Assembly: GCA_023818695.1 (NCBI GenBank)
Contig: JAMWCF010000001.1
Span: forward strand, 467,306-531,305
Reading direction: 5' to 3'
Origin: Candidatus Omnitrophota bacterium
GTDB lineage: Bacteria > Omnitrophota > Gorgyraeia > 1-14-0-20-64-10
Length of the DNA stretch: 64,000 nucleotides
Each line of letters starts with the position of its first letter. Within the stretch, counting starts at the first letter, position 1. Positions 290-61,501 of this stretch are shown here, in pieces. The notes below the pieces were generated by a model. It was not told where the DNA came from, made no database searches, and saw only the letters and a list, made by a program, of their open reading frames with translations. A program made the translations under genes and the position numbers.

Positions 290-480
290 GTGTCGGACGC
301 CGCGAGGTCTCCTGGCTCTCCCGCTCTTTCGCACGCCTTCCCATCCGCCCTTGACGGCGGCGGACAGTGGCTTCACCTATGCGCGAAAGGAACCTCTTCG
401 TCCTTCGGACGAAGGCGGGACTACAGTGGCGGGGCCGCGCCGGCTTTCGACCGGCTTCCCTCACACGGAGTCACCAATTG
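290..480 (-). promoter_or_regulatory. Cobalamin (B12) riboswitch leader of the TonB-receptor gene
   Basis: Minus strand reads AGGGAAGCCGGTCGAAAGCCGGCGCGGCCCCGCCACTGTAG, then GATGGGAAGGCG, then the B12-box-like GAGAGCCAGGAGACCTCGC. These match the conserved cores of the cobalamin riboswitch as I recall them. A GAGGGGG Shine-Dalgarno lies 6 nt before the ATG. Confidence 0.7.
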
Positions 481-27764: not shown

Positions 27765-29864
<2,100 letters not shown>

Positions 29865-41596: not shown

Positions 41597-41670
41597 CAGG
41601 CCTGGAGGGATTTGAACCCCCAACCATCGGATTTGGAGTCCGTTGCTCTACCAGTTGGAGCTACAGGCCT
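41597..41670 (-). tRNA. tRNA-Trp (anticodon CCA)
   Basis: Hand-folded cloverleaf: acceptor AGGCCTG/CAGGCCT, D-stem GCTC/GAGC, anticodon loop CTCCAAA, T-arm GGGGG-TTCAAAT-CCCTC. No encoded CCA. Confidence 0.9.
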
Positions 41671-48766: not shown

Positions 48767-49285
48767 GTGTCAAACCAAAATAGAAATGTCTGGTTTTAAT
48801 GCTTTGCTTTAAGGTTTGAAGCTCTGGAGAGTTAAGGGGCTGGGTTAGCTTCATCGTTACACGCACATCTTTTTTCGCCACGGATGATCTGCCGCCGGCT
48901 TGCGGGCCATCTGCGGGAAGAACCGGCTGATCGTCCAGATGAACGACTCCGGCTTAGCCTTGGGCTGAATCGGAATCGGCCGATAGGCCAGCTCCTTGCC
49001 CTCATGCAAAACACGCATCCGGCCCTGGGGACTGATCGTCACCGCCACCCCCTGCTTGGCCAAGGGACGTAGATCAGACGGCCACACCTGCCGCGTGCTC
49101 AACTCCACAAGCGGCTGCCTCAACCTGCGTCGTCTGCTTCTTTAAGACCGCTTCAAGAACTGGAAGCCTTCGAAGCTCCTTCTGGCTCATCGTGACAACG
49201 TCCTCGTTCATAATACCCTCCTGTCTTCCAACAAGAGGACATTTTTACTTTGGTAGAACCGGACATTCTCACTTTGGTATTACAC
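48767..49285 (-). mobile_element. Internally deleted IS derivative (ISNCY/rve-type transposase remnant), copy 1
   Basis: 48775-49285 is identical by eye to 60991-61501, and the track ORFs are identical at an offset of 12216. Imperfect terminal inverted repeats: gtgtcaaaccaaaatagaaatgtctgg versus the reverse complement of ccggacattctcactttggtattacac. Encodes only an HTH N-terminus (MSQKELRRLPVLEAVLKKQTTQVEAA), a frameshift, then a C-terminal tail (...VLHEGKELAYRPI...ADHPWRKK). Confidence 0.8.
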
Positions 49286-49315
49286 AACTTCCAGAACTTC
49301 TGTTCTGTCGGTGGC

Positions 49316-51109
49316 TTATCGGTTCTGTGGGCCGGGGAGGATGCTGAGGAGATAATCCTGGCTGGCGGGCTTAACGAGGAAGCCGTCGGCCCCCATCTCC
49401 TTGGCTTTCTCGCGGTACTCGGGAAAATCGCAGGCGGTGATCAGGAAGACGGGCCTCTCGGGGAAGATTCTCTTTGCCTCCTGAAGAATACCGAAGCCAT
49501 CCGGGGAAACCCCTGTGGATCCGTCGCCCCTGAGGAGGATTTCCGAAAGGATGACATCGGGCTGATGCTCCTTGAGAAGCGCCAACGCTTGCGGCCCGCT
49601 GGTGGCCGTCCAACACGTGATGCCTCGCGCCTCGAAGATGAGGCGTACGGTTTCCAGGGTTTCTTTCTCGGAGTCTACGATCAGGATGCTGGCCGCCGAG
49701 GGGGCTTTCCTTGCTGGCCTGGGAAGTTCATCGGAAATCACCGATGGCCTCGCCGCCTGTGGGGAGGCCGGAAGGTCCGACTGCCGCAGCGGGAACGTGA
49801 GGGTCACGGTGGTGCCAGCCCCCACCTGGCTCTCCACCTGGATCGCCGCATTGTGGGCCCTCAGGATGTTCTGGACGATGGCCAACCCCAGGCCGGAACC
49901 TTTTTCCTTCGTGGTGTAGAACGGGGCGAAGATGAGCGGGATCTGGTTCTCCGGGATGCCGGATCCGGTGTCGCGGACCTTGACGACCAAGGCCTTCTCG
50001 TTGGGGAAGGCAACGATGTCCAGGAGGCCCGGTTTCTCGCCAGGGGGTGACATCGCCTCGATGGCGTTGTTGAACAAGTTCAGGAACACCTGCTTCATCT
50101 GATCCCGGTCTGCCTCGACGGTAACACCGTTGGGGCTGTAGCCCTTTCGCACCTCGATGTGGCTGCGGTCCAGATCGTTCTCCAGCAGGGCCAGCACGCT
50201 GTCGATCGTTCCGCTGATCTCGATCGGCTTGAAGTCCGGCGCCTTGGGTCTGGAATACACCATGAGCTGCCGGACCAGGTCGTTGATCCGCTCCGCCTCC
50301 GCCTGGGCAAGCTTGGCGAAGCGGTTGCGGAAATCCGGGTCATCGTATTTCTCCGGCAGCATCTCGAAGAAGCCAAGGATCGCCTGCAGGGGATTCTTGA
50401 TCTCATGGGCCATGTCGGCGGCGAACTTGCCGATCGTTCCCATCCGCTCGGAGTGGAGCAGCTGATCGCGGGTGTCGCGCAGTTCCTCGTAGGCCTGGGC
50501 GTTCTCGATCGCCCAGGCCGCCTGGGAAGCCAGCGCGGAGAAGATGGCCAGGTCGTCCTGATCGTACAGGTCGCCGGTGAGTTTCTCACCGAGGACGAGG
50601 AAACCCTGCAGCTTGCCCTCCCTGAAACTGGGAACGCAGACGGCGGCCTGCAAGCGTTCCATCTCCCAGAGTGCGCGTTTGAGCGCGGGGATTTCCTTGT
50701 GCTCCTTGCTCCTGGGTCGTCGCTTGGGCTCCGCTGGGTGTTCCTCCTTCAGCTCGTTATAGACGAGCGGTTCCTTGCACTGGGTGAGGAGAGTAACCAG
50801 AGCCGACGACTCCTCGATGCAGAGTTCGCCAACCGGCTTGCGGAATTTGCCGTGGGAGGTGGCGACAGTGAAGCCGGGTTCAGTCTTGTTTCTGAGGAAA
50901 ATCGTGACGTGGGCGGCCCGCGTATTGCTGGCGGTCACCCGGGCGATGAGGTTGAGCAGCCGCGGCAGGTTCCGGATCCGGGTCATCCCGAGGCTAGCGG
51001 CTCTCAAGATTTCCTGGTAGCGCCGCCGCTGCCGGGAGAGTAACCGGTGCCGCAGCCGCCGGCGGAACCGGCGGAGCCGTTGAGTCAGACTGGCCAGAGG
51101 ATGGGGCAC
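49316..51109 (-). CDS. Hybrid sensor histidine kinase: GAF-HisKA-HATPase_c plus a C-terminal receiver-like domain
   Basis: H-box FAADMAHEIKNPL, N-box LFNNAIEAM, G-boxes VRDTGSGIP and GSGLGLAIV. The C-terminal REC-like domain has DVILSEILL where LLD is expected. Confidence 0.9.
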   Translation of the reverse strand: MPHPLASLTQRLRRFRRRLRHRLLSRQRRRYQEILRAASLGMTRIRNLPRLLNLIARVTASNTRAAHVTIFLRNKTEPGFTVATSHGKFRKPVGELCIEESSALVTLLTQCKEPLVYNELKEEHPAEPKRRPRSKEHKEIPALKRALWEMERLQAAVCVPSFREGKLQGFLVLGEKLTGDLYDQDDLAIFSALASQAAWAIENAQAYEELRDTRDQLLHSERMGTIGKFAADMAHEIKNPLQAILGFFEMLPEKYDDPDFRNRFAKLAQAEAERINDLVRQLMVYSRPKAPDFKPIEISGTIDSVLALLENDLDRSHIEVRKGYSPNGVTVEADRDQMKQVFLNLFNNAIEAMSPPGEKPGLLDIVAFPNEKALVVKVRDTGSGIPENQIPLIFAPFYTTKEKGSGLGLAIVQNILRAHNAAIQVESQVGAGTTVTLTFPLRQSDLPASPQAARPSVISDELPRPARKAPSAASILIVDSEKETLETVRLIFEARGITCWTATSGPQALALLKEHQPDVILSEILLRGDGSTGVSPDGFGILQEAKRIFPERPVFLITACDFPEYREKAKEMGADGFLVKPASQDYLLSILPGPQNR

Positions 51110-51123
51110 GGCTCCCTCCGGGT

Positions 51124-51495
51124 TCAGGCCTTTCCGGAATCAAGGAGGGCCCGGACCTGGGTCAGGATCTTCTGCTGCCGAAACGGCTTGGTGATGTAGT
51201 CGTCGGCCCCGAGGTTGATCGCCTCGGTGGCCACGTCGGTGGCCTCGTAGCCGGTGATGATGACGACCCGGACGCCGGGCTTGAGCTCCTTGATCCTGCG
51301 CAGCGCCTCCAGTCCGTTCATCTTCGGCATCTTGATGTCCATGATCGCTATGGCGGGGTCGTTGGCCCTGACGTGCTCGACCGCCTCCTCGCCGTTGGCC
51401 GCGAAGGAGAGCTCGTACTCGCCGCCCAGCATGTGCTTCAGGGTTTCCCGGACTCCCTCCTCGTCGTCGCAGATCAGGATGTTCGCCTTCTTCAT
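51124..51495 (-). CDS. Single-domain response regulator (CheY-like, canonical residues)
   Basis: ILICDDEE, AIMDIKMPKMNG, VIITG and ITKP. Confidence 0.9.
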   Translation of the reverse strand: MKKANILICDDEEGVRETLKHMLGGEYELSFAANGEEAVEHVRANDPAIAIMDIKMPKMNGLEALRRIKELKPGVRVVIITGYEATDVATEAINLGADDYITKPFRQQKILTQVRALLDSGKA

Positions 51496-51509
51496 CGTTC
51501 CCTCCGTCG

Positions 51510-52064
51510 TTAGAGCACAACCGGATTGGTGACGGAGATGAGCTTCGCCACGTGCCGGTTGGCGTTCGAGAGATGGTGGGGCATTGAGGCGTCCAGGTAC
51601 AGAGTGCTGCCCTGGGAGATCCGGTAGCTCTCCTCACCCACCCTCACGTCCACATCGCCCTCCAAACCGAAGAGCCACCGCTCGGTCCCCCTGGGGTATT
51701 GCTCCCTCGCCGTCTTTCCGCCGGGCTGGAGGACAATCATCTGCGGCAGCATGTGCTTCCTGGACACCTGGGTGGTCAGAAGGATCGCAGAGGCCTTCTC
51801 GTCGTAGGTGTAGGTCTGCGCCCCTTGGGCCTTGGATTCCAGATACGCCGCTCCCTGGGGTGGCGCCTCCAGGCCCCGGTACAGCTCCGCCACACTGACC
51901 TTCAGGGCTTCTGCGATCTTCTCGATCGTCCTGGCGTTCCCTCCGCCCTTCCCGTTCTCGATGCGGCTCAAGGAGCCGACAGCGACGCCGCTTCGCCTGG
52001 CCAGCTCCCCTATGGCAAGACCCTGCTCCTTCCTGAGTGCCCGGATGCGGGCTCCGAGATCCAT
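51510..52064 (-). CDS. XRE-family HTH transcriptional regulator with C-terminal cupin domain
   Basis: IRALRKEQGLAIGELARRSGVAVGSLSRIENG HTH, with a cupin-like C-terminus (LYLDASMPHHLSN). Confidence 0.85.
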   Translation of the reverse strand: MDLGARIRALRKEQGLAIGELARRSGVAVGSLSRIENGKGGGNARTIEKIAEALKVSVAELYRGLEAPPQGAAYLESKAQGAQTYTYDEKASAILLTTQVSRKHMLPQMIVLQPGGKTAREQYPRGTERWLFGLEGDVDVRVGEESYRISQGSTLYLDASMPHHLSNANRHVAKLISVTNPVVL

Positions 52065-52174
52065 GTTTCACCCCCTTCCGCTCATCCTGAATCGTACTAC
52101 AAAAACGCGAACTTTTCAAAGTGAATCGTCCTCTTTATGAATCATACGCCACTGTCCTGAAGCGTTATATTTAC

Positions 52175-52201
52175 ACAAGTATATATAAATAAATATCTTG
52201 T
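52175..52201. promoter_or_regulatory. Inverted repeat ACAAG-N17-CTTGT in an AT-rich divergent control region (candidate operator)
   Basis: acaagtatatataaataaatatcttgt lies about 110 nt upstream of the XRE-cupin gene. It overlaps a minus-strand TTTATA-N17-TATACT promoter-like pair. Confidence 0.35.
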
Positions 52202-52250
52202 ATAAAATATTCTGTGCCGGAACCATTCAAACAAATATGTGAAATTAATA

Positions 52251-52280
52251 TTGACAAATATTTGAACTATGTGGCATACT
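52251..52280 (+). promoter_or_regulatory. Sigma70-type promoter candidate for the only plus-strand island genes
   Basis: TTGACA, an 18-nt spacer, then CATACT. Confidence 0.4.
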
Positions 52281-52310
52281 CCCCAGTGAGAACATGAAAG
52301 GGACTCCCCG

Positions 52311-52472
52311 ATGTTCAGACGGTGGTACCTCTACTGGCGATGGCTACGGATCAAACGGGTGAAGGTGGGCAGAGCCATTGAGGTGGAACTACCCAGATTC
52401 TCCCGGATGAGCGAATACGCCGCCGGCGACAACTTCCCGGTTCTGTCCAGAACGCTGGTCAGGGCCGAGTAA
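52311..52472 (+). CDS. Possible small ORF (53 aa, Trp/Arg-rich N-terminus)
   Basis: Hand translation gives MFRRWYLYWRWLRIKRVKVGRAIEVELPRFSRMSEYAAGDNFPVLSRTLVRAE. Third codon positions are mostly G/C. No family recognised and no clear SD. Confidence 0.25.
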   Translation: MFRRWYLYWRWLRIKRVKVGRAIEVELPRFSRMSEYAAGDNFPVLSRTLVRAE

Positions 52473-52622
52473 GATTCCGATCAGGGCAAACCCGACGTAA
52501 GAAGCGGGGGCGCAAAGCCGAGGTTCCGCCTCAAACCAGGGGCGGGAGGCCGGGCTGCCGGAATCCATGTGATTCAGGCAGCCCAGCTTTGTCTTCTTCA
52601 TGGGAGGGAGGTGAGAGTCCGT

Positions 52623-52979
52623 ATGGATCGTCAAATGATGGTGAACCTGATCCGAAACGAGGTGGTCGAGAACCCCAAAGGCAAGACCCGGTTCTGGCTC
52701 GTCCGCTGTTTCGAGATCACCGTGCGCCCCGATCGCGTGGTGGAGCTGGATGAGTATGAGGCGTACGAGGTGTGCGAGGGGAAGAACGGCATCGAGGCCT
52801 GCAGCGACCCCTGCGCTGACCTCCGGAGTCTGGCCGGCATGTTCCACGTCGGCCGCAGCGTGATCCACCTGAACGACGGGCGGGTCATCGAGGAGCCATC
52901 CGGCAGAGGCCTGATCAGCGCCAACGGCAGCCGGCCTGAAGTAAAGCAGCAATCTCGGCCGGCCCCAGTTACCGTTTGA
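52623..52979 (+). CDS. Hypothetical protein (118 aa)
   Basis: Strong SD (GGGAGGGAGGTGAGAG) ending 6 nt before the ATG at 52623. Third positions are strongly G/C in this frame, whereas the overlapping minus-strand ORFs look like antisense artefacts. Confidence 0.65.
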   Translation: MDRQMMVNLIRNEVVENPKGKTRFWLVRCFEITVRPDRVVELDEYEAYEVCEGKNGIEACSDPCADLRSLAGMFHVGRSVIHLNDGRVIEEPSGRGLISANGSRPEVKQQSRPAPVTV

Positions 52980-53790
52980 CCAGGTCGTGCTCCAGGGCCG
53001 TTTGGCGAACCAGCGCCATGAAGGCCTGCAGGTCGCCGTCCTTCCACAGGTTGCCCTGCCATTTCTTGGCCGGCAGCAGGTTCAGCAGCCGATCCTCCTC
53101 AGCGTTGGGGTGCATGTAGAGGATGTAGTCCTTCGGCTGACTCGGGCAGTCCAGCAGTTTGCGGATCGCTTCGCCCGGCTCGTTGACCGTCATGGCGTCC
53201 AGCAGGACGATGTCCGGCTGAAGGGCGGTCATGGCCATGACCGCTTGTTCCACATTCGCGGCGTGTTCCACCTTGTAGACCCCTTTGGCCTGGCTGGCGT
53301 CGCCAAGGTGTCTGAGCAGAATGCTGGCGACCGACTCGAACGGCTCGATGAGCAACAGTAGCGCCAGCGGCTCGCCAGGGGAGGCATCCTGAAGTTTCAT
53401 GCCCATCGTTATCTTCTTCAGTTCATCCTCGTCCTTGCGCGTTAGCAGGCGGTCGGCGAATTCGATCAGCTTGTCGGTGGCAAACGGTTTGGTGAAGAAG
53501 GCGTCGCAGCCCAGGGCCCGTACGGCCCGCTCACGCTCCGGGTAGGCGGTCAGCACGATCACCTTAACCTGAGGGGCTTTGGTTTTCACCCGCTTGAGCA
53601 CCTCTTCGCCCGGCAGGCCCGGCATGTGGAGGTCCAGAATCATGAGGTCGGCCGGCTGCCTCGCCAGGATCGCCAGCGCCTCATCCCCCGAGGCCGCGCG
53701 CTGCACCTGGTAGCCCTTCTCCAGGAAAAACTGGGAGAGCACCGAGGTCAGCCGATCCTCGTCGTCCACCAGCAGAATCCGGAACTCCAT
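52969..53790 (-). CDS. Response regulator: canonical REC plus a second degenerate REC-like domain plus a conserved C-terminal helix (paralog 1, intact)
   Basis: ILLVDDED, LMILDLHMPG, VLTA and FTKP. The second half has LLLIEP...DIVLLDAM. The C-terminus is WQGNLWKDGDLQAFMALVRQTALEHDLVKR. Confidence 0.85.
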   Translation of the reverse strand: MEFRILLVDDEDRLTSVLSQFFLEKGYQVQRAASGDEALAILARQPADLMILDLHMPGLPGEEVLKRVKTKAPQVKVIVLTAYPERERAVRALGCDAFFTKPFATDKLIEFADRLLTRKDEDELKKITMGMKLQDASPGEPLALLLLIEPFESVASILLRHLGDASQAKGVYKVEHAANVEQAVMAMTALQPDIVLLDAMTVNEPGEAIRKLLDCPSQPKDYILYMHPNAEEDRLLNLLPAKKWQGNLWKDGDLQAFMALVRQTALEHDLVKR

Positions 53791-53803
53791 CGCGTCGCCC
53801 CCT

Positions 53804-54178
53804 CTACGCCTTCGGCCCGCCGAGCTTCTTCATGAATTCCAGGAGCTTCTCGGGCGGGATCGGTTTGATGGGATAGTCGTCCGCTCCCAATTGCTTGGCC
53901 TTGGCCTGCTTCTCCTCATCAGGGAAGCCGGTGATCATGACGACGTGGGCGACGGGGTGGAGCCTCTTGGCCTCCCGGAGGATGCCGAAACCGTCCATGG
54001 GGCTGTTGTTCAGCTGGACGTCCAGCAGCACGAGGTCCGGCTTGTGTTCCGCGACGATCTTCAGAGCCGCGGTGCTCTCGCCGGCCGTCCAGCAGGTGGC
54101 CCCGTTCATCTCGAAGAGCATCTTCACGACGGTGTCGGCCGCGACCTCCTCGTCGTCAACGACCAGTACGCTCGACAT
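53804..54178 (-). CDS. Single-domain response regulator (CheY-like, canonical residues)
   Basis: VLVVDDEE, LVLLDVQL, MITG and IKP. Confidence 0.9.
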   Translation of the reverse strand: MSSVLVVDDEEVAADTVVKMLFEMNGATCWTAGESTAALKIVAEHKPDLVLLDVQLNNSPMDGFGILREAKRLHPVAHVVMITGFPDEEKQAKAKQLGADDYPIKPIPPEKLLEFMKKLGGPKA

Positions 54179-54497
54179 TCGTCATCCTCTGCTCCAAGTA
54201 TCGCAGCAGATCCGCCACCGTCAACAGTTTTTCCGCCTCCTCGTCCGTGATCTCGATACCGAACTGCTCCTCCACCGCCATCACGAGCTCGACGGCGTCC
54301 AGCGAGTCGATACCCAGGTCCTTCACGAAGTCGGCCTGCGGCGTGATGCCGTTGGGATAGACGCCCAGCTGCTTGGTCAGGATGTCATGCACCTTGGGCC
54401 ACAGGCTCGCACGGAAAACGACGGGCGGCTCCGGGACCTTATGCCAGGGCAGCCGCTGGGAGATCCACTGGCCCATCAGCTTAAGTCGCGTCCCCAT
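54156..54497 (-). CDS. Acyl carrier protein-like protein with ~30-aa N-terminal extension
   Basis: DFVKDLGIDSLDAVELVMAVEEQFGIEITDEEA carries the DSL phosphopantetheine-attachment motif. Confidence 0.8.
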   Translation of the reverse strand: MGTRLKLMGQWISQRLPWHKVPEPPVVFRASLWPKVHDILTKQLGVYPNGITPQADFVKDLGIDSLDAVELVMAVEEQFGIEITDEEAEKLLTVADLLRYLEQRMTNVERTGR

Positions 54498-54578
54498 GGG
54501 TTCTCACTGCACCACCAGGCGATGCTCCAGCGCCGTCCTGCCGATGAGCTGTACCAGCGTCCCCAAGGACTCCTCAGT

Positions 54579-55262
54579 TCAGGGGTCGCCGACCCATCGC
54601 TTACCCGGCACGGAGTCCAGCAGGTGCCGGTTCCTGTCGCCGGCATGCATGAAGAAGACATAGTCCCTGGGCTGAGTCTCGCAGGCGAGCAACCGCTGCA
54701 CCACCTCATCGGGATGGTGCTGCGAGGAGAGAAGCGAGAGATCCGCGACCACGAGATGCGGCTTGTGATCCGCCAGGAGTTTGAGGGCGTGCTCGAGCTG
54801 GGCGGTCCTGAGGATGAAGTACATACCTTCCGCCACCAGCGGATCCCGCAGGAGGCGCATCAGCGCGCGGGTGAGCCCGAGGTCCGGCTCCAGGAGCAGG
54901 ACGTCTGCCCTGGGCCACTCCCTCGCCGGCCCGCCGGATTCCGCCAGCCCGGGCAGGATCTGCTGGACTTCCTCGGCGTCTTTCTCGAGCAGGAACATGC
55001 ACATCGCCTCGACCATCGGCTCCCGAGCCAGGGGCTTTGGCAGTAAGCGGTCGCAGCCGACGGCCCGGAGCTCCCGTTCCTGATCCGGCTCAGCACCTAG
55101 CGCCAGGACCTTTGCCAGGGGCGCATCGGCCCGGACCCGCCGGATCAATGTCAAACCGGAGGGGCCTAGCGTCTCCAGATTGAGGACGAGCAGATCCAGC
55201 TTCGCCCAGCTGAGGATCTGCTCGGCTTCCTCCACGCCGACGATCAGGATCTTGAATTCCAA
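54579..55262 (-). CDS. Degenerate REC-pseudoREC protein (paralog 2); reading frame continues past an in-frame TGA to 54504
   Basis: ILIVGVEE and LLVLNLE replace the DD and D sites. It ends ...GKRWVGDP-TGA. The next 24 in-frame codons encode TEESLGTLVQLIGRTALEHRLVVQ, homologous to the paralog C-termini. Confidence 0.75.
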   Translation of the reverse strand: MEFKILIVGVEEAEQILSWAKLDLLVLNLETLGPSGLTLIRRVRADAPLAKVLALGAEPDQERELRAVGCDRLLPKPLAREPMVEAMCMFLLEKDAEEVQQILPGLAESGGPAREWPRADVLLLEPDLGLTRALMRLLRDPLVAEGMYFILRTAQLEHALKLLADHKPHLVVADLSLLSSQHHPDEVVQRLLACETQPRDYVFFMHAGDRNRHLLDSVPGKRWVGDP

Positions 55263-56104
55263 CGGCCCCTCCTACCGTTTGACCAGCCCGTGCTCCAGGG
55301 CCGTCTTGCGGATGAGCTCCCCAGGGTTTCCAGCTCTCTCTCTTTCCAGGGGTTACCCTGCCAATGCTTGAATGAGAGGGTGTTCAAGACCTGCTGCCGC
55401 TCTGGCGGCAGCGGCCTGTGGAAGTAGAACAGGTAGTCCTTCGGCTGATACTCGCAACTCGTGAGTTGCTTGACGGCATCCGCCGGTGCCGGGACGGTCA
55501 GGAGATCCACCATGACCAGATCCGGGCGCATAGCGAAAAGCACTGTCATCGCCTGCGACAGGTCGTCTGCCCAGCTAAAATGATAGGTGCCGTAGCCTCT
55601 GCCCGGTTCGGGGTGACGCAGGAAATAGATGATGGGTGCGGCGATGTCCTTGACCGGTTCCAGGATCAGGATGTCGGCCAGCGGCTCGCCGGGTGAAGCC
55701 TGCTCCAACTCCTCCGGCATGGTGACCGTCTTGAGCTCCTCCTCATCCTTGCGGGTGAGCAGCGAATCCACTGTGCGGACCAGGCGCTCCATGGCGAATG
55801 GCTTCTGGACGAAGGCGTCGTAGCCGAGGGGTTTCACCTCGTTCTCCCGCTCGGGGAAGGCGGTCACGACGACCACCCGGGTCTGGGGCGCCTTCGCGCG
55901 GATGTGCCTCAGGACATCCGCCCCGGAGAGGCCCGGCATCTGCAGGTCCAGCAGCACCAAGTCCGCCGGCTGCCGGTCGAAGGCCTCCACCGCCTCCTCC
56001 CCGGAGAGCGCCTGCGACACCAGATAACCCTTCTCGAAGAAGATCTCCGTCAGCGTCGAGACGAGACTCTCCTCATCGTCCACCACCAGAATCCGGAACT
56101 CCAT
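55244..56104 (-). CDS. Response regulator REC plus pseudoREC (paralog 3), C-terminus apparently frameshifted
   Basis: ILVVDDEE, LVLLDLQMPG, VVTA and VQKP. After ...WKERELETLG the conserved tail ELIRKTALEHGLVKR-stop (stop at 55272) lies in another frame. Confidence 0.8.
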   Translation of the reverse strand: MEFRILVVDDEESLVSTLTEIFFEKGYLVSQALSGEEAVEAFDRQPADLVLLDLQMPGLSGADVLRHIRAKAPQTRVVVVTAFPERENEVKPLGYDAFVQKPFAMERLVRTVDSLLTRKDEEELKTVTMPEELEQASPGEPLADILILEPVKDIAAPIIYFLRHPEPGRGYGTYHFSWADDLSQAMTVLFAMRPDLVMVDLLTVPAPADAVKQLTSCEYQPKDYLFYFHRPLPPERQQVLNTLSFKHWQGNPWKERELETLGSSSARRPWSTGWSNGRRGRWNSRS

Positions 56105-56500
56105 CTACCCTCCCTTCTTCTTCCGCTCCAGCTCCAGGGCCCCCTCCTGGATCTTCGCCAGGATCTGCTCCATCGGCATCGGCTTGACCAGGTAGTCCCG
56201 GGCGCCTAAGGCCACCGCCTTGTCCCGGAACTCTTGGTCGTCGAACCCGGTGAAGATGTAAACCATCAGGTCCGGGTTCGCCGCCTTGGCCTCCCGGAAC
56301 ACCCGGAACCCGCTCATGTCCGGCAGATCGAGGTTCAGCAGCATCATGTCCGGGCGCTCCTTCTGGGCCAGGGCGATCCCCTCGGCCCCCTTCAGGGCCG
56401 TCACCACATCGAACCCGCCGTAGTCCCGGAACAGCATCTCGACCGTCTGGGCGGTGTCCGGCTCGTTCTCCACGATCAGGATCTTGATCTTATGCGGCAT
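56105..56500 (-). CDS. Single-domain pseudo-receiver (phospho-acceptor Asp replaced by Asn)
   Basis: ILIVENEP and DMMLLNLDLPDMSG align to DD and LLD-L-P-M-G. IFTG and VKP are retained. Confidence 0.8.
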   Translation of the reverse strand: MPHKIKILIVENEPDTAQTVEMLFRDYGGFDVVTALKGAEGIALAQKERPDMMLLNLDLPDMSGFRVFREAKAANPDLMVYIFTGFDDQEFRDKAVALGARDYLVKPMPMEQILAKIQEGALELERKKKGG

Positions 56501-58739
56501 GGCTCGCCTTGTCCTCTTTCAGGGCTGGCAACTGGATGGTGCAGCGGGTCCCCTTGCCGTACTCCGACTCCATGAAAATCCGCCCGCCGTGGGCCATGAG
56601 AATCCGCTTGATGTAGAAAAGCCCCAGCCCATGACCACCGGGCCCCATCCCCTGAGAGGATCCCTTCGTCGTAAAGAGTGGCACAAAAATCTTCTTCTTC
56701 TTGTCCGGCTCTTTGATTCCGATCCCGTTGTCCTCGACGGTGATGATGACTTTGCCGTTCTCCTCCTGCGCCTTCACCACCACCCGCCCGTGGTAGGGCT
56801 CCGGCGGTTCGGGCAGCGCCTTCAGCCGCATCTTGCGGATCCGCTCCTCGACGGCGTCCACCGCGTTGTCGATCACGTTCATGATCGAGTCGTGGATCTG
56901 CGCCGAGTTGCAGGAGATCCTCGGCAGGTTGGTGGAAATCCCGTTGACGATCTCCGGCACCTCCGCCTCCTCCACCACCTTGCCGCGGGCGTGTTTGAAG
57001 CGCACAAACTCGATGGCATCCTGGACCATCGGCAAGATCTCCGCCTGCTGGAACTCGGCCGGGATCGTCTTTGCCAGGCTCATGACTCCCTTGGCGATCT
57101 CGCCGGCCCGGGCGCACTCCTTGCGGATCGACTCGAAGGCCCGCAAAACCCGCGTCAGTCTGGTCAGGTCGAACTCCCCCTTCTTGAGAACCTGCCCCAG
57201 CCAAGACATCGCCTGCCAGCAGAGGTTCTCGATCACCTGGATCCGGTTGCTGTATTGGTGCGAGACGGCGCCGGAAATGTCCAGGGCCATCTGGTCGCGC
57301 TCCCGCTCGACCACCTTTTGCTCCTCCGCCTCGTGAAACCGGGCGTTCTCGATGGCCAGCGCCGCCTGGTTGGCCAGCACCATGAGGAGGTTCAGGTCAT
57401 CCTGCGTCCAGATCCGGCCCGCGCGCTTGTCGCCCAACACGAGGAACCCCAGGAACCGGCGCTGGTGGAAGGCCGGGATCATCACGGAGGCCTTGAACAA
57501 GTCCATCTCCCGGGCCATCTCCCGCCAGTTGGCCGAGAGGGCTTGCTGGTGCAGCCGCAATTCCTCCTTGACTCGTGGGATCCTGACCGTGGAGAGATCC
57601 TTGGCCAGGGTCGAAGTAGCCGCCAGAGCGTCCGGCAGAAAGGAATCCTTCCGGGGTGGGTGATAGCGGCTGGCCTTCTGCCGGTACCGGCCGTCATTGC
57701 CTTCCATCAGGTAGATTGCTGCATGCGAGATGTTCAGGACTGTGACGAGCCGGCGGACGATCTGTTTCAGCAGCGTTTTCTCCCGAAGGAACCGCATCAT
57801 GTCCTGCGAGATGAACCTGAGGTCCTCGTGGGCCTTGTGCTCCTCGGCGAGGAGAAGATTCTCGGTTCTCTTCTGGAAGTACTGGTTGACGTAATGGGCC
57901 GCTGTAGTAAAGATAGCGCATGCAAACCATAACCCTACCCACCAGTTGACTCCGAATGCCTGCTCGAGCTTCGGACGCCATTCAAGAGCGACGAGGAGAG
58001 GCAAGCCCAAAGTGAAAGCATAGACCAGCGCAAAAACCCATGTGCGCCTGATGGCCAAGTTGATGTCCATGAGGCGATGCCGCGTGATGGCGTAGAAAAT
58101 TACGGAGAAAGAAGCCAGGATAAAGAAAGCGCCAATGGGATAGAAATTCATGCCGTAGTTGATGAGGAACTCGATTGCGGAACAACAGAAGAGGATAAAT
58201 GCTATCCACGTAAATTTGGCTTGATTGTGCTTGGTGGCCGTTCTTTGCCCGGAACCTGCCCTCACGGCTACAGTCAGCATCCAAAGGAGGCGCCCAAGCG
58301 TTGCAGCAACGAATAGAACGAGAAGAGGGTGAAGAAACCCGGCCTTCCCATATATTCCCCAGCTGAAAGTATGGTAACCGTCGACGATAAGATCGGTACT
58401 CCACAAGAGAAGGAAAAACAAACCGCTGAAGGTGTAGAGAATCCTCACCACTCGCCCGTCTCGGAGGCGCCATCGGTCCAAGAAATGAGTGACGAAGTGA
58501 AGCGCCGTTACCGGCAAAACAACGATGGATGAGAAGGCAACCCTGACTATTAGTTGCTGCTGTGGGTCTGTAACCAAGAAGTAAGATGCGAACCAGCAGG
58601 CCTGCCAGATGAAGAATTCCAAACACATCAGGGCAAATGTTCGGTTGGATGGGGAATAGCGATTTCGGCTGAAAACCAGGAAAGTGAGGAAGAGGGCTGT
58701 TAGACTTGTGGCGAGTGGCGGGAGAACGTAAAAGGACAT
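56490..58739 (-). CDS. Membrane sensor histidine kinase: N-terminal 7-TM domain, GAF, DHp, HATPase_c
   Basis: About seven hydrophobic helices in the first ~290 aa. GAF region (FLGFLVLGDKRAGRIWTQDDLNLLMVLANQAALAIENA). N-box NVIDNAVDA and G-boxes VEDNGIGI and GLGLFYIKRIL. The H-box is atypical (AVSHQYSN). Confidence 0.88.
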   Translation of the reverse strand: MSFYVLPPLATSLTALFLTFLVFSRNRYSPSNRTFALMCLEFFIWQACWFASYFLVTDPQQQLIVRVAFSSIVVLPVTALHFVTHFLDRWRLRDGRVVRILYTFSGLFFLLLWSTDLIVDGYHTFSWGIYGKAGFLHPLLVLFVAATLGRLLWMLTVAVRAGSGQRTATKHNQAKFTWIAFILFCCSAIEFLINYGMNFYPIGAFFILASFSVIFYAITRHRLMDINLAIRRTWVFALVYAFTLGLPLLVALEWRPKLEQAFGVNWWVGLWFACAIFTTAAHYVNQYFQKRTENLLLAEEHKAHEDLRFISQDMMRFLREKTLLKQIVRRLVTVLNISHAAIYLMEGNDGRYRQKASRYHPPRKDSFLPDALAATSTLAKDLSTVRIPRVKEELRLHQQALSANWREMAREMDLFKASVMIPAFHQRRFLGFLVLGDKRAGRIWTQDDLNLLMVLANQAALAIENARFHEAEEQKVVERERDQMALDISGAVSHQYSNRIQVIENLCWQAMSWLGQVLKKGEFDLTRLTRVLRAFESIRKECARAGEIAKGVMSLAKTIPAEFQQAEILPMVQDAIEFVRFKHARGKVVEEAEVPEIVNGISTNLPRISCNSAQIHDSIMNVIDNAVDAVEERIRKMRLKALPEPPEPYHGRVVVKAQEENGKVIITVEDNGIGIKEPDKKKKIFVPLFTTKGSSQGMGPGGHGLGLFYIKRILMAHGGRIFMESEYGKGTRCTIQLPALKEDKASHAA

Positions 58740-58786
58740 TTTATTCGTCAGAAGTCACGGCCACTCGCATAAACGTGACTTCGGGG

Positions 58787-58942
58787 TCAATACCGTAGTA
58801 CCATTCCACCCATAGTAAATTCCGCTCCATAGGCCAATGCAAAAACCGTGTCGACTCGTTTAATCCTGCCCTCCCGAGCTGCCTCATCCAAATAGACCGG
58901 CATCTCTGCCGACACGAGGTTACCGTATTTCGAGGGCGAATT
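58787..58942 (-). pseudogene. Remnant of a second KAS III-like gene (C-terminal ~50 codons only)
   Basis: In frame directly after the TAA at 58943-58945: NSPSKYGNLVSAEMPVYLDEAAREGRIKRVDTVFALAYGAEFTMGGMVLRY-stop. This parallels the upstream gene's FSRYGNLVSAELPVLLDENMRAGRIKRGQLVLMFTYGAGFTSACAVVRL. Confidence 0.7.
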
Positions 58943-60298
58943 TTAAAGCCTGACTACTGCACAGGCACTGGTGAACCCCGCACCATATGTGAACATGAGC
59001 ACTAGTTGCCCCCGTTTAATTCGACCGGCGCGCATGTTCTCGTCCAACAAGACGGGAAGTTCTGCCGACACGAGATTTCCGTAGCGGGAGAAGTTTTCCA
59101 CCACCTTGTTCTGAGGTACTCCTAAAAGGCCGAGGGAGTACTCAAACAAGAACTTGCTCGGGTAATGCAGAAGGAAGACGTCTATGTCACCGATGGAAAC
59201 CCGTGCTTTCCGAAGCGTCCTGTTAACAAAGGGGATCAGGTGTCGGTCCATTACTTGAAAGAACTCTTCCCGGGCCGGGTTCATGTAGAAATAGCCTTTG
59301 TATTCGTCAGGAATTCCCGGTGGGGTGACGGTCCACGGCAGAGGAGCAAAAATGTGTGTTCCGTATTCCCCTCTGTTCCATAGTTCGCAGGCGAGGATGT
59401 CGCCCTCGCCTGAGGAATCCGCTTCGAGCAGAATGCCACCCGCTCCGTCTCCAAAAATAGCCCTGTGCATCAAGCTTTTAAACGGAAGAGACGAACCTAC
59501 TGTGCTAGCGGCGAGAACCAGAATCGCTTTGTGCCCACCCGCGATGTATCGGCGTGCGATGTCCACCGCACAAAGCCACCCAGAACAAGACATGTTAATC
59601 TCGAAGGCTGGGCAGTGTGCCCCGATCCTGACTTGTACCGTACTTCCCACATCGGGGGCTACTGCATCTCCGGGATTCACTGCACAAATGATCATGTCTA
59701 TGGTCGAGGGGTGCCGTTTCGCCTTGGTCAGGATCGCCTTGGCCACTTCGGCCATCATGCTTGAAGCATTTTGGCCTGGCTGTACGCTCCGCCTCTCAAT
59801 AGCCCCCAACGCACGCTGAATAGTTAAATCTGTGGATTTCAGTCCGTTTGCAATGATGTGGTCGTTCGTTACAATCTTATCGGGAAGAAAGCTGGCGGTG
59901 TGCGCTATCCTTGCAGTTACAGTGCGCCGACCAAAATCCCGCGTGTCCGCCGGGCCACGCGCACCCATAACGAGTTTCGCCACGATGTCTGATCCCGATT
60001 CGAGTATCCGGGAGAACTGGATTCCAGTGAGGTACCCGGAGGCAAAATTCTCAGAAGGTATACCGTTCACGTGATATTGCCAAACAACCACGCCCTCGGC
60101 TTCCACAATCTGAGTGGGGCTGGTTTGTATTTTAAGATTGAGATAACTCTCCTTCGGGAGACTTCTGGGGAGAATGGCGCTTACGCCCCCTTGGCTGAGG
60201 TCCCAAGTAGTGCCCGAACAAGGCTTCTCTGGTGCGCCCTTAAAGACACACGTAACCGGCAGTGCCGTTTTTACTCGACCGACGTGGCGACGTTCCAT
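58943..60298 (-). CDS. PilZ domain fused to a 3-oxoacyl-ACP synthase III (FabH/KAS III-like) domain
   Basis: N-terminal RRHVGR (RxxxR) and DLSQGG (DxSxxG) with ...VVVWQ...GIQF. The C-terminal ~330 aa is thiolase-fold with a candidate Cys-His-Asn triad (NMSCSGW, LLHYPSK, YGNLVSAE). Confidence 0.8.
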   Translation of the reverse strand: MERRHVGRVKTALPVTCVFKGAPEKPCSGTTWDLSQGGVSAILPRSLPKESYLNLKIQTSPTQIVEAEGVVVWQYHVNGIPSENFASGYLTGIQFSRILESGSDIVAKLVMGARGPADTRDFGRRTVTARIAHTASFLPDKIVTNDHIIANGLKSTDLTIQRALGAIERRSVQPGQNASSMMAEVAKAILTKAKRHPSTIDMIICAVNPGDAVAPDVGSTVQVRIGAHCPAFEINMSCSGWLCAVDIARRYIAGGHKAILVLAASTVGSSLPFKSLMHRAIFGDGAGGILLEADSSGEGDILACELWNRGEYGTHIFAPLPWTVTPPGIPDEYKGYFYMNPAREEFFQVMDRHLIPFVNRTLRKARVSIGDIDVFLLHYPSKFLFEYSLGLLGVPQNKVVENFSRYGNLVSAELPVLLDENMRAGRIKRGQLVLMFTYGAGFTSACAVVRL

Positions 60299-60304
60299 TC
60301 TGTT

Positions 60305-60568
60305 CTACCCCGGTTTGTTGCCGCTTAAGTGCCGCTGCAAGAAGTCGATAGTATCTTGGACGGTCACCAGCCTCATGGCTTCATCATCTGGAATTTTGAT
60401 GCCGAACGCTTCCTCTAATTTCATCACCAGCTCAATCCGCTGAAGGGAGTCCGCTCCCAGGTCCTCTGCGATTTTTTTCTCTGGAAGTACTTCTTCCACC
60501 TTAACCTTCAATTCTTCCGAGAGGGTCACTCTGGCCTTCTCGGCTATTTGAGAGGCAGTTAGCACCAT
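60305..60568 (-). CDS. Acyl carrier protein
   Basis: EDLGADSLQRIELVMKLEEAFGIKIPDDEA (DSL motif); 87 aa. Ends 6 nt before the PilZ-KASIII start. Confidence 0.88.
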   Translation of the reverse strand: MVLTASQIAEKARVTLSEELKVKVEEVLPEKKIAEDLGADSLQRIELVMKLEEAFGIKIPDDEAMRLVTVQDTIDFLQRHLSGNKPG

Positions 60569-60630
60569 TTCACTCTCTCGAGCACATCCGGTTCCATGCC
60601 CACCGATGAAGAACGAAAGCTATAAAGAGC

Positions 60631-60654
60631 AAAAACGGCCGGACACATCCGGCC
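60631..60654 (-). terminator. Rho-independent terminator after the HTH gene
   Basis: Minus strand reads GGCCGGA-TGTG-TCCGGCC followed by GTTTTTGCTCTTT, starting 2 nt after the TGA stop. Confidence 0.7.
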
Positions 60655-60656
60655 AC

Positions 60657-60935
60657 TCATGAGTTCTGTCCTCTCTTGGACTTTTTCAGGCGCTTCTTTG
60701 CGGTCAACCCGCTTGCTTTGGTGTAGGTTTTATCGAGAAACTGGTCCACCGCCCGTCGCACCGCCCGGCTCTTTGGCGACCTACCGTACTTGAGCCAACG
60801 GTAGACGGACATCGAATGGACACCGATCTCATGGCCCAGCTCATCGTAGCTAAGCCCTCGGCGCTTTTTGATTTCCCGAAGTTTTTCGATCTGATCGACT
60901 GACACATTATGGGAGTGTAGCAAAAGCATACACAA
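60657..60935 (-). CDS. Small HTH DNA-binding protein (XRE or transposase-OrfA-like)
   Basis: RRGLSYDELGHEIGVHSMSVYRWLKYG helix-turn-helix with a basic C-terminus. Lies adjacent to the IS end. Confidence 0.7.
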   Translation of the reverse strand: MCMLLLHSHNVSVDQIEKLREIKKRRGLSYDELGHEIGVHSMSVYRWLKYGRSPKSRAVRRAVDQFLDKTYTKASGLTAKKRLKKSKRGQNS

Positions 60936-60957
60936 AAGTCAAACTTTCTCAGTCTCG

Positions 60958-61501
60958 CTGTCAAACCAAAACAGAAATGTCCGGTATTCCCCAAAATAGA
61001 AATGTCTGGTTTTAATGCTTTGCTTTAAGGTTTGAAGCTCTGGAGAGTTAAGGGGCTGGGTTAGCTTCATCGTTACACGCACATCTTTTTTCGCCACGGA
61101 TGATCTGCCGCCGGCTTGCGGGCCATCTGCGGGAAGAACCGGCTGATCGTCCAGATGAACGACTCCGGCTTAGCCTTGGGCTGAATCGGAATCGGCCGAT
61201 AGGCCAGCTCCTTGCCCTCATGCAAAACACGCATCCGGCCCTGGGGACTGATCGTCACCGCCACCCCCTGCTTGGCCAAGGGACGTAGATCAGACGGCCA
61301 CACCTGCCGCGTGCTCAACTCCACAAGCGGCTGCCTCAACCTGCGTCGTCTGCTTCTTTAAGACCGCTTCAAGAACTGGAAGCCTTCGAAGCTCCTTCTG
61401 GCTCATCGTGACAACGTCCTCGTTCATAATACCCTCCTGTCTTCCAACAAGAGGACATTTTTACTTTGGTAGAACCGGACATTCTCACTTTGGTATTACA
61501 C
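60958..61501 (-). mobile_element. Internally deleted IS derivative, copy 2 (complete ~50-bp left terminal repeat)
   Basis: Identical to copy 1 over 511 bp. Its left end carries two tandem ~20-bp motifs (ccaaaacagaaatgtccgg and ccaaaatagaaatgtctgg) that mirror the two at the right end. Copy 1 lacks 25 bp here. Confidence 0.8.

Follow-up and report, generated by a model that had tools for sequence, protein, structure and literature searches.

An apparently lineage-specific premature TGA at a tryptophan codon in one of three tandem receiver-like paralogues of a Candidatus Omnitrophota bacterium

Genes and features at the locus

The window considered here, by which we mean throughout the whole 64-kb stretch of DNA that was analysed, holds three tandem paralogues, all on the minus strand, the second of which is interrupted by an in-frame TGA. 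The features on which the argument depends are as follows.

41597..41670, minus strand: tRNA-Trp, anticodon CCA, with an A27/A43 mismatch ('4-bp anticodon stem'), in the tuf-tRNATrp-nusG-rplK position
52969..53790, minus strand: paralogue 1, 273 aa, intact; the family reference, with a receiver (REC) domain, a long linker helix and a second (βα)5 domain
54156..54497, minus strand: acyl-carrier-protein (ACP) gene, directly downstream of paralogue 2 and sharing its frame
54504..54506, minus strand: ancestral TGA stop of paralogue 2, in the place where the orthologues also stop
54507..54578, minus strand: tail of 24 in-frame sense codons, TEESLGTLVQLIGRTALEHRLVVQ, coding for α5 of the second receiver-like domain, either as a relic or only on readthrough
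54579..54581, minus strand: premature TGA of paralogue 2, which is TGG (Trp) in all four orthologues
54579..55262, minus strand: paralogue 2 as now read (P0001), 227 aa, annotated as a hypothetical protein (NC910_02750)
55244..56104, minus strand: paralogue 3, now a 286-aa ORF, with a 1-nt deletion at ~55319-55322

The minus strand reads AAG CGA TGG GTC GGC GAC CCC TGA ACT GAG GAG at the premature stop, so the nascent chain there ends in Asp-Pro (GAC CCC) and the base following the stop (+4) is A. At the 3′ end of the tail it reads CTG GTG GTG CAG TGA GAA CCC ATG. On this re-reading, the coordinates and sequence that the first-pass annotation gave for both TGAs, the 24-codon tail and the distance to the ACP gene prove to be exact. 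The ATG of the ACP gene (54495-54497) lies 6 nt, or two codons, past the TGA at 54504-54506 and in the frame of paralogue 2. We considered whether this shared frame is significant, but the phasing is not conserved at one of the orthologous loci described below (L004) and is therefore probably a coincidence. A second natural TGA on the minus strand (27765-27767), the stop of a 699-aa ORF discussed below, also has the next gene in frame, after three codons rather than two, and readthrough of UGA at either of these natural stops would make fusion proteins.

Several other features surround the paralogues. A c-di-GMP-I riboswitch (RF01051, 46.3 bits; window 52475-52562, plus strand) immediately precedes a small ORF on the plus strand (52569/52623-52979), which lacks a Pfam match and is convergent with paralogue 1. 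The neighbourhood also includes a GAF hybrid kinase (49316-51109), a 7TM-GAF histidine kinase (56490-58739) and a PilZ-KASIII fusion (58943-60298); in L001 the PilZ-KASIII gene has a further ACP gene called on its upstream side. Towards the left end, a cobalamin riboswitch (RF00174, 59.9 bits; window 305-461, minus strand) overlaps a probably spurious 128-aa ORF (78-464), and the gene that it regulates would sit at or past the window edge. Elsewhere in the window we take the 699-aa ORF to be EF-G (fusA) and the gene after it to be rpsJ, and there are two ORFs of RNA polymerase size, an identification that is likewise our reading.

A small family of tandem receiver-like proteins

Pfam detects only the N-terminal REC domain in these proteins, with a match of 2e-28 for paralogue 1 and a partial one for paralogue 2 (profile positions 32-109 only). 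The AlphaFold2 (AF2) prediction for paralogue 1, which drew on 33 family members and has a mean pLDDT of 89, shows a pair of (βα)5 units connected by a long helix, and the best matches among solved structures (Foldseek, ~285 columns) are PleD chains (E = 6e-14). In the model W249, the residue corresponding to the TGA position, lies in the loop that connects β5 to α5 in the second unit, and residues 251-267, the equivalent of the tail, form helix α5 (pLDDT 92-95). The tail thus corresponds in the model to α5 of the second domain, which resembles a PleD receiver, and the premature TGA would accordingly be predicted to remove a whole secondary-structure element from a compact fold.

The family is tiny, with 33 clusters among 5.8 billion proteins, and its members are 272-284 aa long apart from two shorter entries that are cut N-terminally. 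Full-length members end in ...TALEHxLVKR or LVVQ, the sole exception among the 33 clusters being paralogue 2 of the window (P0001), and none of the other members ends at the position of the premature stop. The alignment of the three C-termini on which the first-pass annotation was founded could be reproduced, with Trp at the stop position in paralogue 1 and in paralogue 3 of the window. Its description of this Trp as conserved holds within the paralogue-1 and paralogue-2 subfamilies and for some paralogue-3 genes, but not across the family, where W, F, L, Q, Y or E is found; the position is hydrophobic, and Trp is not invariant.

The premature stop is derived

Syntenic loci were found in an NCBI MAG (L002), an ENA assembly (L003, identical in sequence to the JGI locus L005), a groundwater MAG (L004) and JGI metagenomes (L006-L009), with the gene order histidine kinase, REC, paralogue 3, paralogue 2, ACP, REC and paralogue 1. 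The codon at the stop position is TGG in L002, L003/L005, L004 and L006, and the 24-codon tail is also in place there, with equal length, the LVVQ ending and the final TGA all shared. The comparison of orthologues for TGG versus TGA that the first-pass annotation had proposed as a check thus gives TGG at four of four loci, none of them terminating at this position, which points to one G-to-A transition on the window branch. To judge from these loci, the premature TGA is derived and seen only in this lineage. Scanning genome collections yielded one locus and scanning metagenomes five, and a protein search for closer strains returned no match between 100 % and 70 % identity. Every relative found is a distant orthologue with TGG, and these relatives set no closer limit on when the TGA arose.

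The conservation that had been claimed for the tail is well above chance: of its 24 residues it shares 17 with the L002 orthologue and 17 with that of L003, a proportion close to the identity of the whole protein (67-70 %). The first-pass annotation had also stressed that the TGA falls exactly on a Trp codon. The fact stands, though it is no special sign, being the expected look of a nonsense transition. Paralogue 2 has 19 single-transition routes to a stop, 8 of them at Trp codons, and 9 single-base routes to TGA, 4 of them from TGG; TGG-to-TGA is among the commonest nonsense routes.

Relaxed constraint and further lesions

Paralogue 2 of the window carries other derived changes. It starts with TTG (55260-55262) where its orthologues have ATG, an in-frame deletion of 25 codons (junction ~55235/55236) has removed α1-β2-α2 of the receiver, and the phospho-acceptor Asp has become Asn (AAT, 55179-55181). 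The orthologues are themselves atypical receivers, with A-G in place of the acidic pair. Substitutions unique to the window branch number 51 nonsynonymous to 28 synonymous, compared to 19 to 26 on the L002 branch (Fisher p = 0.023), a result of modest significance that has this single branch for comparison. Pairwise dN/dS is ~0.30 against the window and 0.10-0.26 among the other orthologues. Assuming roughly three nonsynonymous sites per synonymous site, we estimate dN/dS on the window branch at ~0.6, a value below 1 that speaks against paralogue 2 having been neutral for the whole branch. Constraint on the gene appears to be relaxed, though still present. This further damage, along with the TGG and matching tail at four other loci, bears out the recent nonsense mutation that the first-pass annotation had listed among its options.

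Within the tail the window branch has three amino acid replacements (R>G, V>I and H>R) and three synonymous changes, and the comparison of body with tail (p = 0.66) has no statistical power with 24 codons. The replacements are mild and there is no second lesion, which is also the expectation under continued translation. Another lineage has lost the gene outright. At L007 (2650-3497) and L008 (JGI Ga0066640 / Ga0066639) the orthologue of paralogue 2 is a plain pseudogene, with a frameshift after ...EPELTLARTL and a 3′ end replaced by unrelated sequence after ...HSGDK; the ACP gene is absent downstream, and the disrupted product (P0004, 157 aa) is found on 6 contigs. This loss is independent of the lesion in the window. 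Taken alone, the premature TGA is nothing out of the ordinary for a paralogue in decay.

A neighbouring lesion in paralogue 3 was passed over in the first-pass annotation. The orthologues have CTGGGAGAGCTC where the window has CTGGGGAGCTC, with 1 nt lost, and the conserved tail ELIRKTALEHGLVKR-TAG (stop 55272-55274) now lies in the -1 frame, its conserved C-terminal helix being swapped for 24 unrelated residues. The resulting ORF runs into paralogue 2 at its TTG start, and the two share 19 nt. Paralogue 3 is intact, at 277 aa, in five independent orthologous sequences (six loci, as L003 and L005 are the same), and by this comparison the deletion is lineage-specific and falls in the tail that matches the one cut off in paralogue 2. 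A programmed -1 frameshift was considered at this site and rejected: the fold scores z = +0.7, there is no canonical slippery heptamer, and the orthologues carry one more base. In annotations, paralogue 2 ought to carry a flag for disruption and paralogue 3 one for a frameshift.

Are the lesions artefacts?

A sequencing or assembly error was one of the options raised in the first-pass annotation, and the source is a metagenome-assembled genome in which two lesions fall inside 750 nt. A Logan per-run assembly (SRR27730039), produced by another pipeline, matches window positions 49256-61020 with 0 mismatches in 11,765 nt, the TGA and the neighbouring frameshift included, though a contig with zero differences over 11.7 kb may derive from a shared population or even from shared reads; it is recorded in 3 samples. 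This base-for-base agreement argues against an error of assembly or polishing. The premature TGA is a substitution rather than a homopolymer error, long ORFs are intact across the surrounding 64 kb, the two of RNA polymerase size, the 699-aa ORF and EF-Tu among them, and the other derived changes in paralogue 2 cannot be errors of such a type. An error is thus unlikely, and we see only a very slight chance that the TGA arose in sequencing or assembly, or is a minority variant that the assembler fixed, in a population that really has TGG.

The genetic code and known recoding signals

Among the 56 non-overlapping ORFs of at least 100 aa in the window (58.7 % GC), 28 stop at TAA, 15 at TGA and 13 at TAG, a small sample that is probably rich in ribosomal and translation genes. 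A TGA share of this size looks low for such a GC content. The 699-aa ORF is among those with a TGA stop, EF-Tu is confirmed by Pfam, and long conserved-looking ORFs run uninterrupted. The tRNA-Trp of the window has the anticodon CCA, and no UCA-anticodon tRNA-Trp occurs in the 64 kb. A table 4-like code with UGA reassigned to Trp is ruled out by the 15 of 56 TGA stops and the CCA anticodon: the genetic code is standard. The window contains no other TGA with a conserved in-frame extension.

When the 91 nt around and after the premature TGA are folded, they do no better than shuffles (z = -0.8) as a candidate stimulatory structure, and no Rfam family reaches threshold nearby; of possible stimulatory features, the site has just the generic weak context Asp-Pro-UGA-A. 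Insertion of selenocysteine was rejected, given that no SECIS-like structure is seen (the same z = -0.8) and that none of the residues found in homologues at the stop position is Cys, which argues against it. A conserved recoding site was likewise rejected, with TGG in all four orthologous loci and the stop absent from other family members; the premature TGA is not a conserved recoding signal.

The tryptophan tRNA and the termination context

In the anticodon stem of the window tRNA-Trp (ACGGA/UCCGA) the bases at canonical positions 27 and 43, at the top of the stem, are both A and cannot pair; the loop is CUCCAAA (7 nt), and both A9 and G24 are present (no A9C, no G24A). All 74 nt of the tRNA agree with the entry GCA_023818695.1 JAMWCF010000001.1.trna15 (PMC13092985, Suppl. 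Table 5), which is marked '4 bp AS, no, no, A/A' and classed as Omnitrophota; Koll11; order 1-14-0-20-64-10; genus JAMWCF01. By its sequence it has every trait of the class that Fakih et al. (NAR 2026; PMC13092985) named 'Blastocrithidia-like 4-bp anticodon-stem tRNA-Trp(CCA)'. The A/A feature is shared by a second Omnitrophota genome of this order (GCA_002787095.1).

Decoding of UGA by 4-bp-stem tRNA-Trp was earlier shown in trypanosomatids and ciliates, and an over-expressed C27A tRNA-Trp raises readthrough of a UGA reporter in E. coli ~2.5-fold, though the effect at native levels in the tRNAs' own hosts is stated to be untested (PMC13092985). Genomes with a 4-bp-stem tRNA-Trp alone tend toward fewer UGA stops (PMC13092985), an association that the stop usage of the window (15/56 TGA) fits. 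The mechanism proposed is C:A pairing at the third codon position (PMC13092985), which would insert Trp at the window UGA. In E. coli, Asp-Pro as the last two residues is among the poorest termination contexts and promotes tmRNA tagging (PMC3985003). Given the unpaired 27:43 of the tRNA-Trp and the Asp-Pro-UGA-A context, partial Trp insertion is plausible, and would restore the ancestral residue; the predicted tryptic peptide across the UGA would then be WVGDPWTEESLGTLVQLIGR. The first-pass annotation had suggested leaky readthrough, and the tRNA and the Asp-Pro context seem to make it more plausible mechanistically than could be known then, with no sign of its being selected or programmed. 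With its ancestral tail intact, and in a host that has a 4-bp-stem tRNA-Trp, this TGG-to-TGA mutation at a poor terminator offers a concrete natural test case for readthrough by such a tRNA.

Weighing the explanations

The stop is probably a lineage-specific nonsense transition in a redundant and already degenerating paralogue, with the tail as a young relic. A single G-to-A transition (TGG to TGA) would have struck, in this lineage, one of three tandem paralogues whose products have a REC followed by a second PleD-like receiver-fold domain without an output domain. It would have cut helix α5 off the second domain, in a copy that was already under relaxed constraint, and the 24 downstream codons would look conserved because there has been too little time for them to decay. 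On this reading paralogue 2 is better seen as turning into a pseudogene, or as a copy whose output is strongly reduced, than as a recoding device. A fraction of ribosomes may still place Trp at the UGA and so yield the ancestral full-length protein of 252 aa, in which case partial readthrough would be a by-product that softens the effect of the mutation, and not a selected feature. A rather unlikely alternative is that paralogue 2 is in use and that the tRNA-Trp(CCA) decodes UGA often enough for a working full-length protein, the outcome being two isoforms or simply less full-length protein, with the TGA tolerated or even maintained. The tail is intact, the residue inserted would be the ancestral Trp, and a TGA share that looks low for the GC content fits the association reported for such tRNAs. 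Likewise the A27/A43 mismatch places the tRNA in the Blastocrithidia-like list, and C27A lifts UGA readthrough in E. coli (PMC13092985), though the effect is modest, ~2.5-fold over a low background and with over-expression (PMC13092985). The weak Asp-Pro-UGA-A terminator would help, and tmRNA tagging of truncated Asp-Pro products would favour the full-length form (PMC3985003). Set against this, the stop occurs in no orthologue and no other family member, neither a stimulatory RNA structure nor an Rfam element accompanies it, and paralogue 2 shows other degenerative changes and relaxed constraint; the 3 nonsynonymous to 3 synonymous changes in the tail are uninformative.

We would go further only tentatively, and consider it quite doubtful, that the TGA is a natural in-host substrate of a 4-bp-stem tRNA-Trp(CCA) in a free-living, standard-code Omnitrophota (Koll11) bacterium. 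Re-insertion of Trp would make TGG-to-TGA partly self-suppressing, so that such mutations would be tolerated and accumulate. If true, this would be an 'ambiguous intermediate' stage toward UGA=Trp reassignment, caught at a single gene. It is highly unlikely that the truncated 227-aa protein is itself functional, as a neofunctionalised pseudo-receiver without need of α5, and that the tail is dead sequence. Judging from the model, removal of α5 from a (βα)5 fold would expose a sheet face and normally destabilise the domain, the 25-codon deletion also takes α1-β2-α2 from the first domain, and in E. coli ending in Asp-Pro favours the tagging of a protein for degradation (PMC3985003). This truncated form is also absent from all other family members. 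In its favour, the body still has a dN/dS below 1, the orthologues of paralogue 2 were already atypical receivers in their acidic pair, and the loss of the equivalent helix from paralogue 3 could reflect loss of a shared interaction mediated by α5.

Comparison with known systems

The proteins resemble PleD-type tandem receivers in having an N-terminal Pfam REC, a long linker helix and a second (βα)5 domain. They differ from PleD in having no GGDEF or any other output domain, and in forming a family of 33 clusters with a specific ...W.G[ND]P[WF]...TALEHGLVKR tail.

The coat/A1 system of phage Qβ is a case of programmed UGA readthrough by tRNA-Trp in bacteria. The likeness would lie in a UGA read at low frequency by a near-cognate tRNA-Trp to give a C-terminally extended second product. 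However, the Qβ stop and extension are conserved and essential, whereas the stop in the window is unique to one genome and its 'extension' is no more than the C-terminus of the ancestral protein. Blastocrithidia and Zinderia have reassigned UGA across their genomes; in the window, by contrast, UGA is a normal stop (15/56 ORFs), and a single in-frame UGA with a conserved extension occurs in 64 kb.

The closest parallel to the nonsense transition that we favour is a pseudogene arising by nonsense mutation. Like such pseudogenes, paralogue 2 has a derived stop absent from its orthologues, extra lesions, relaxed constraint and an independent loss in another lineage, and its downstream codons are still recognisable, as expected of a recent event. 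It differs from an ordinary nonsense pseudogene in that the body of the gene is not yet fully neutral, and in that the tRNA of the host may partly suppress exactly such a mutation.
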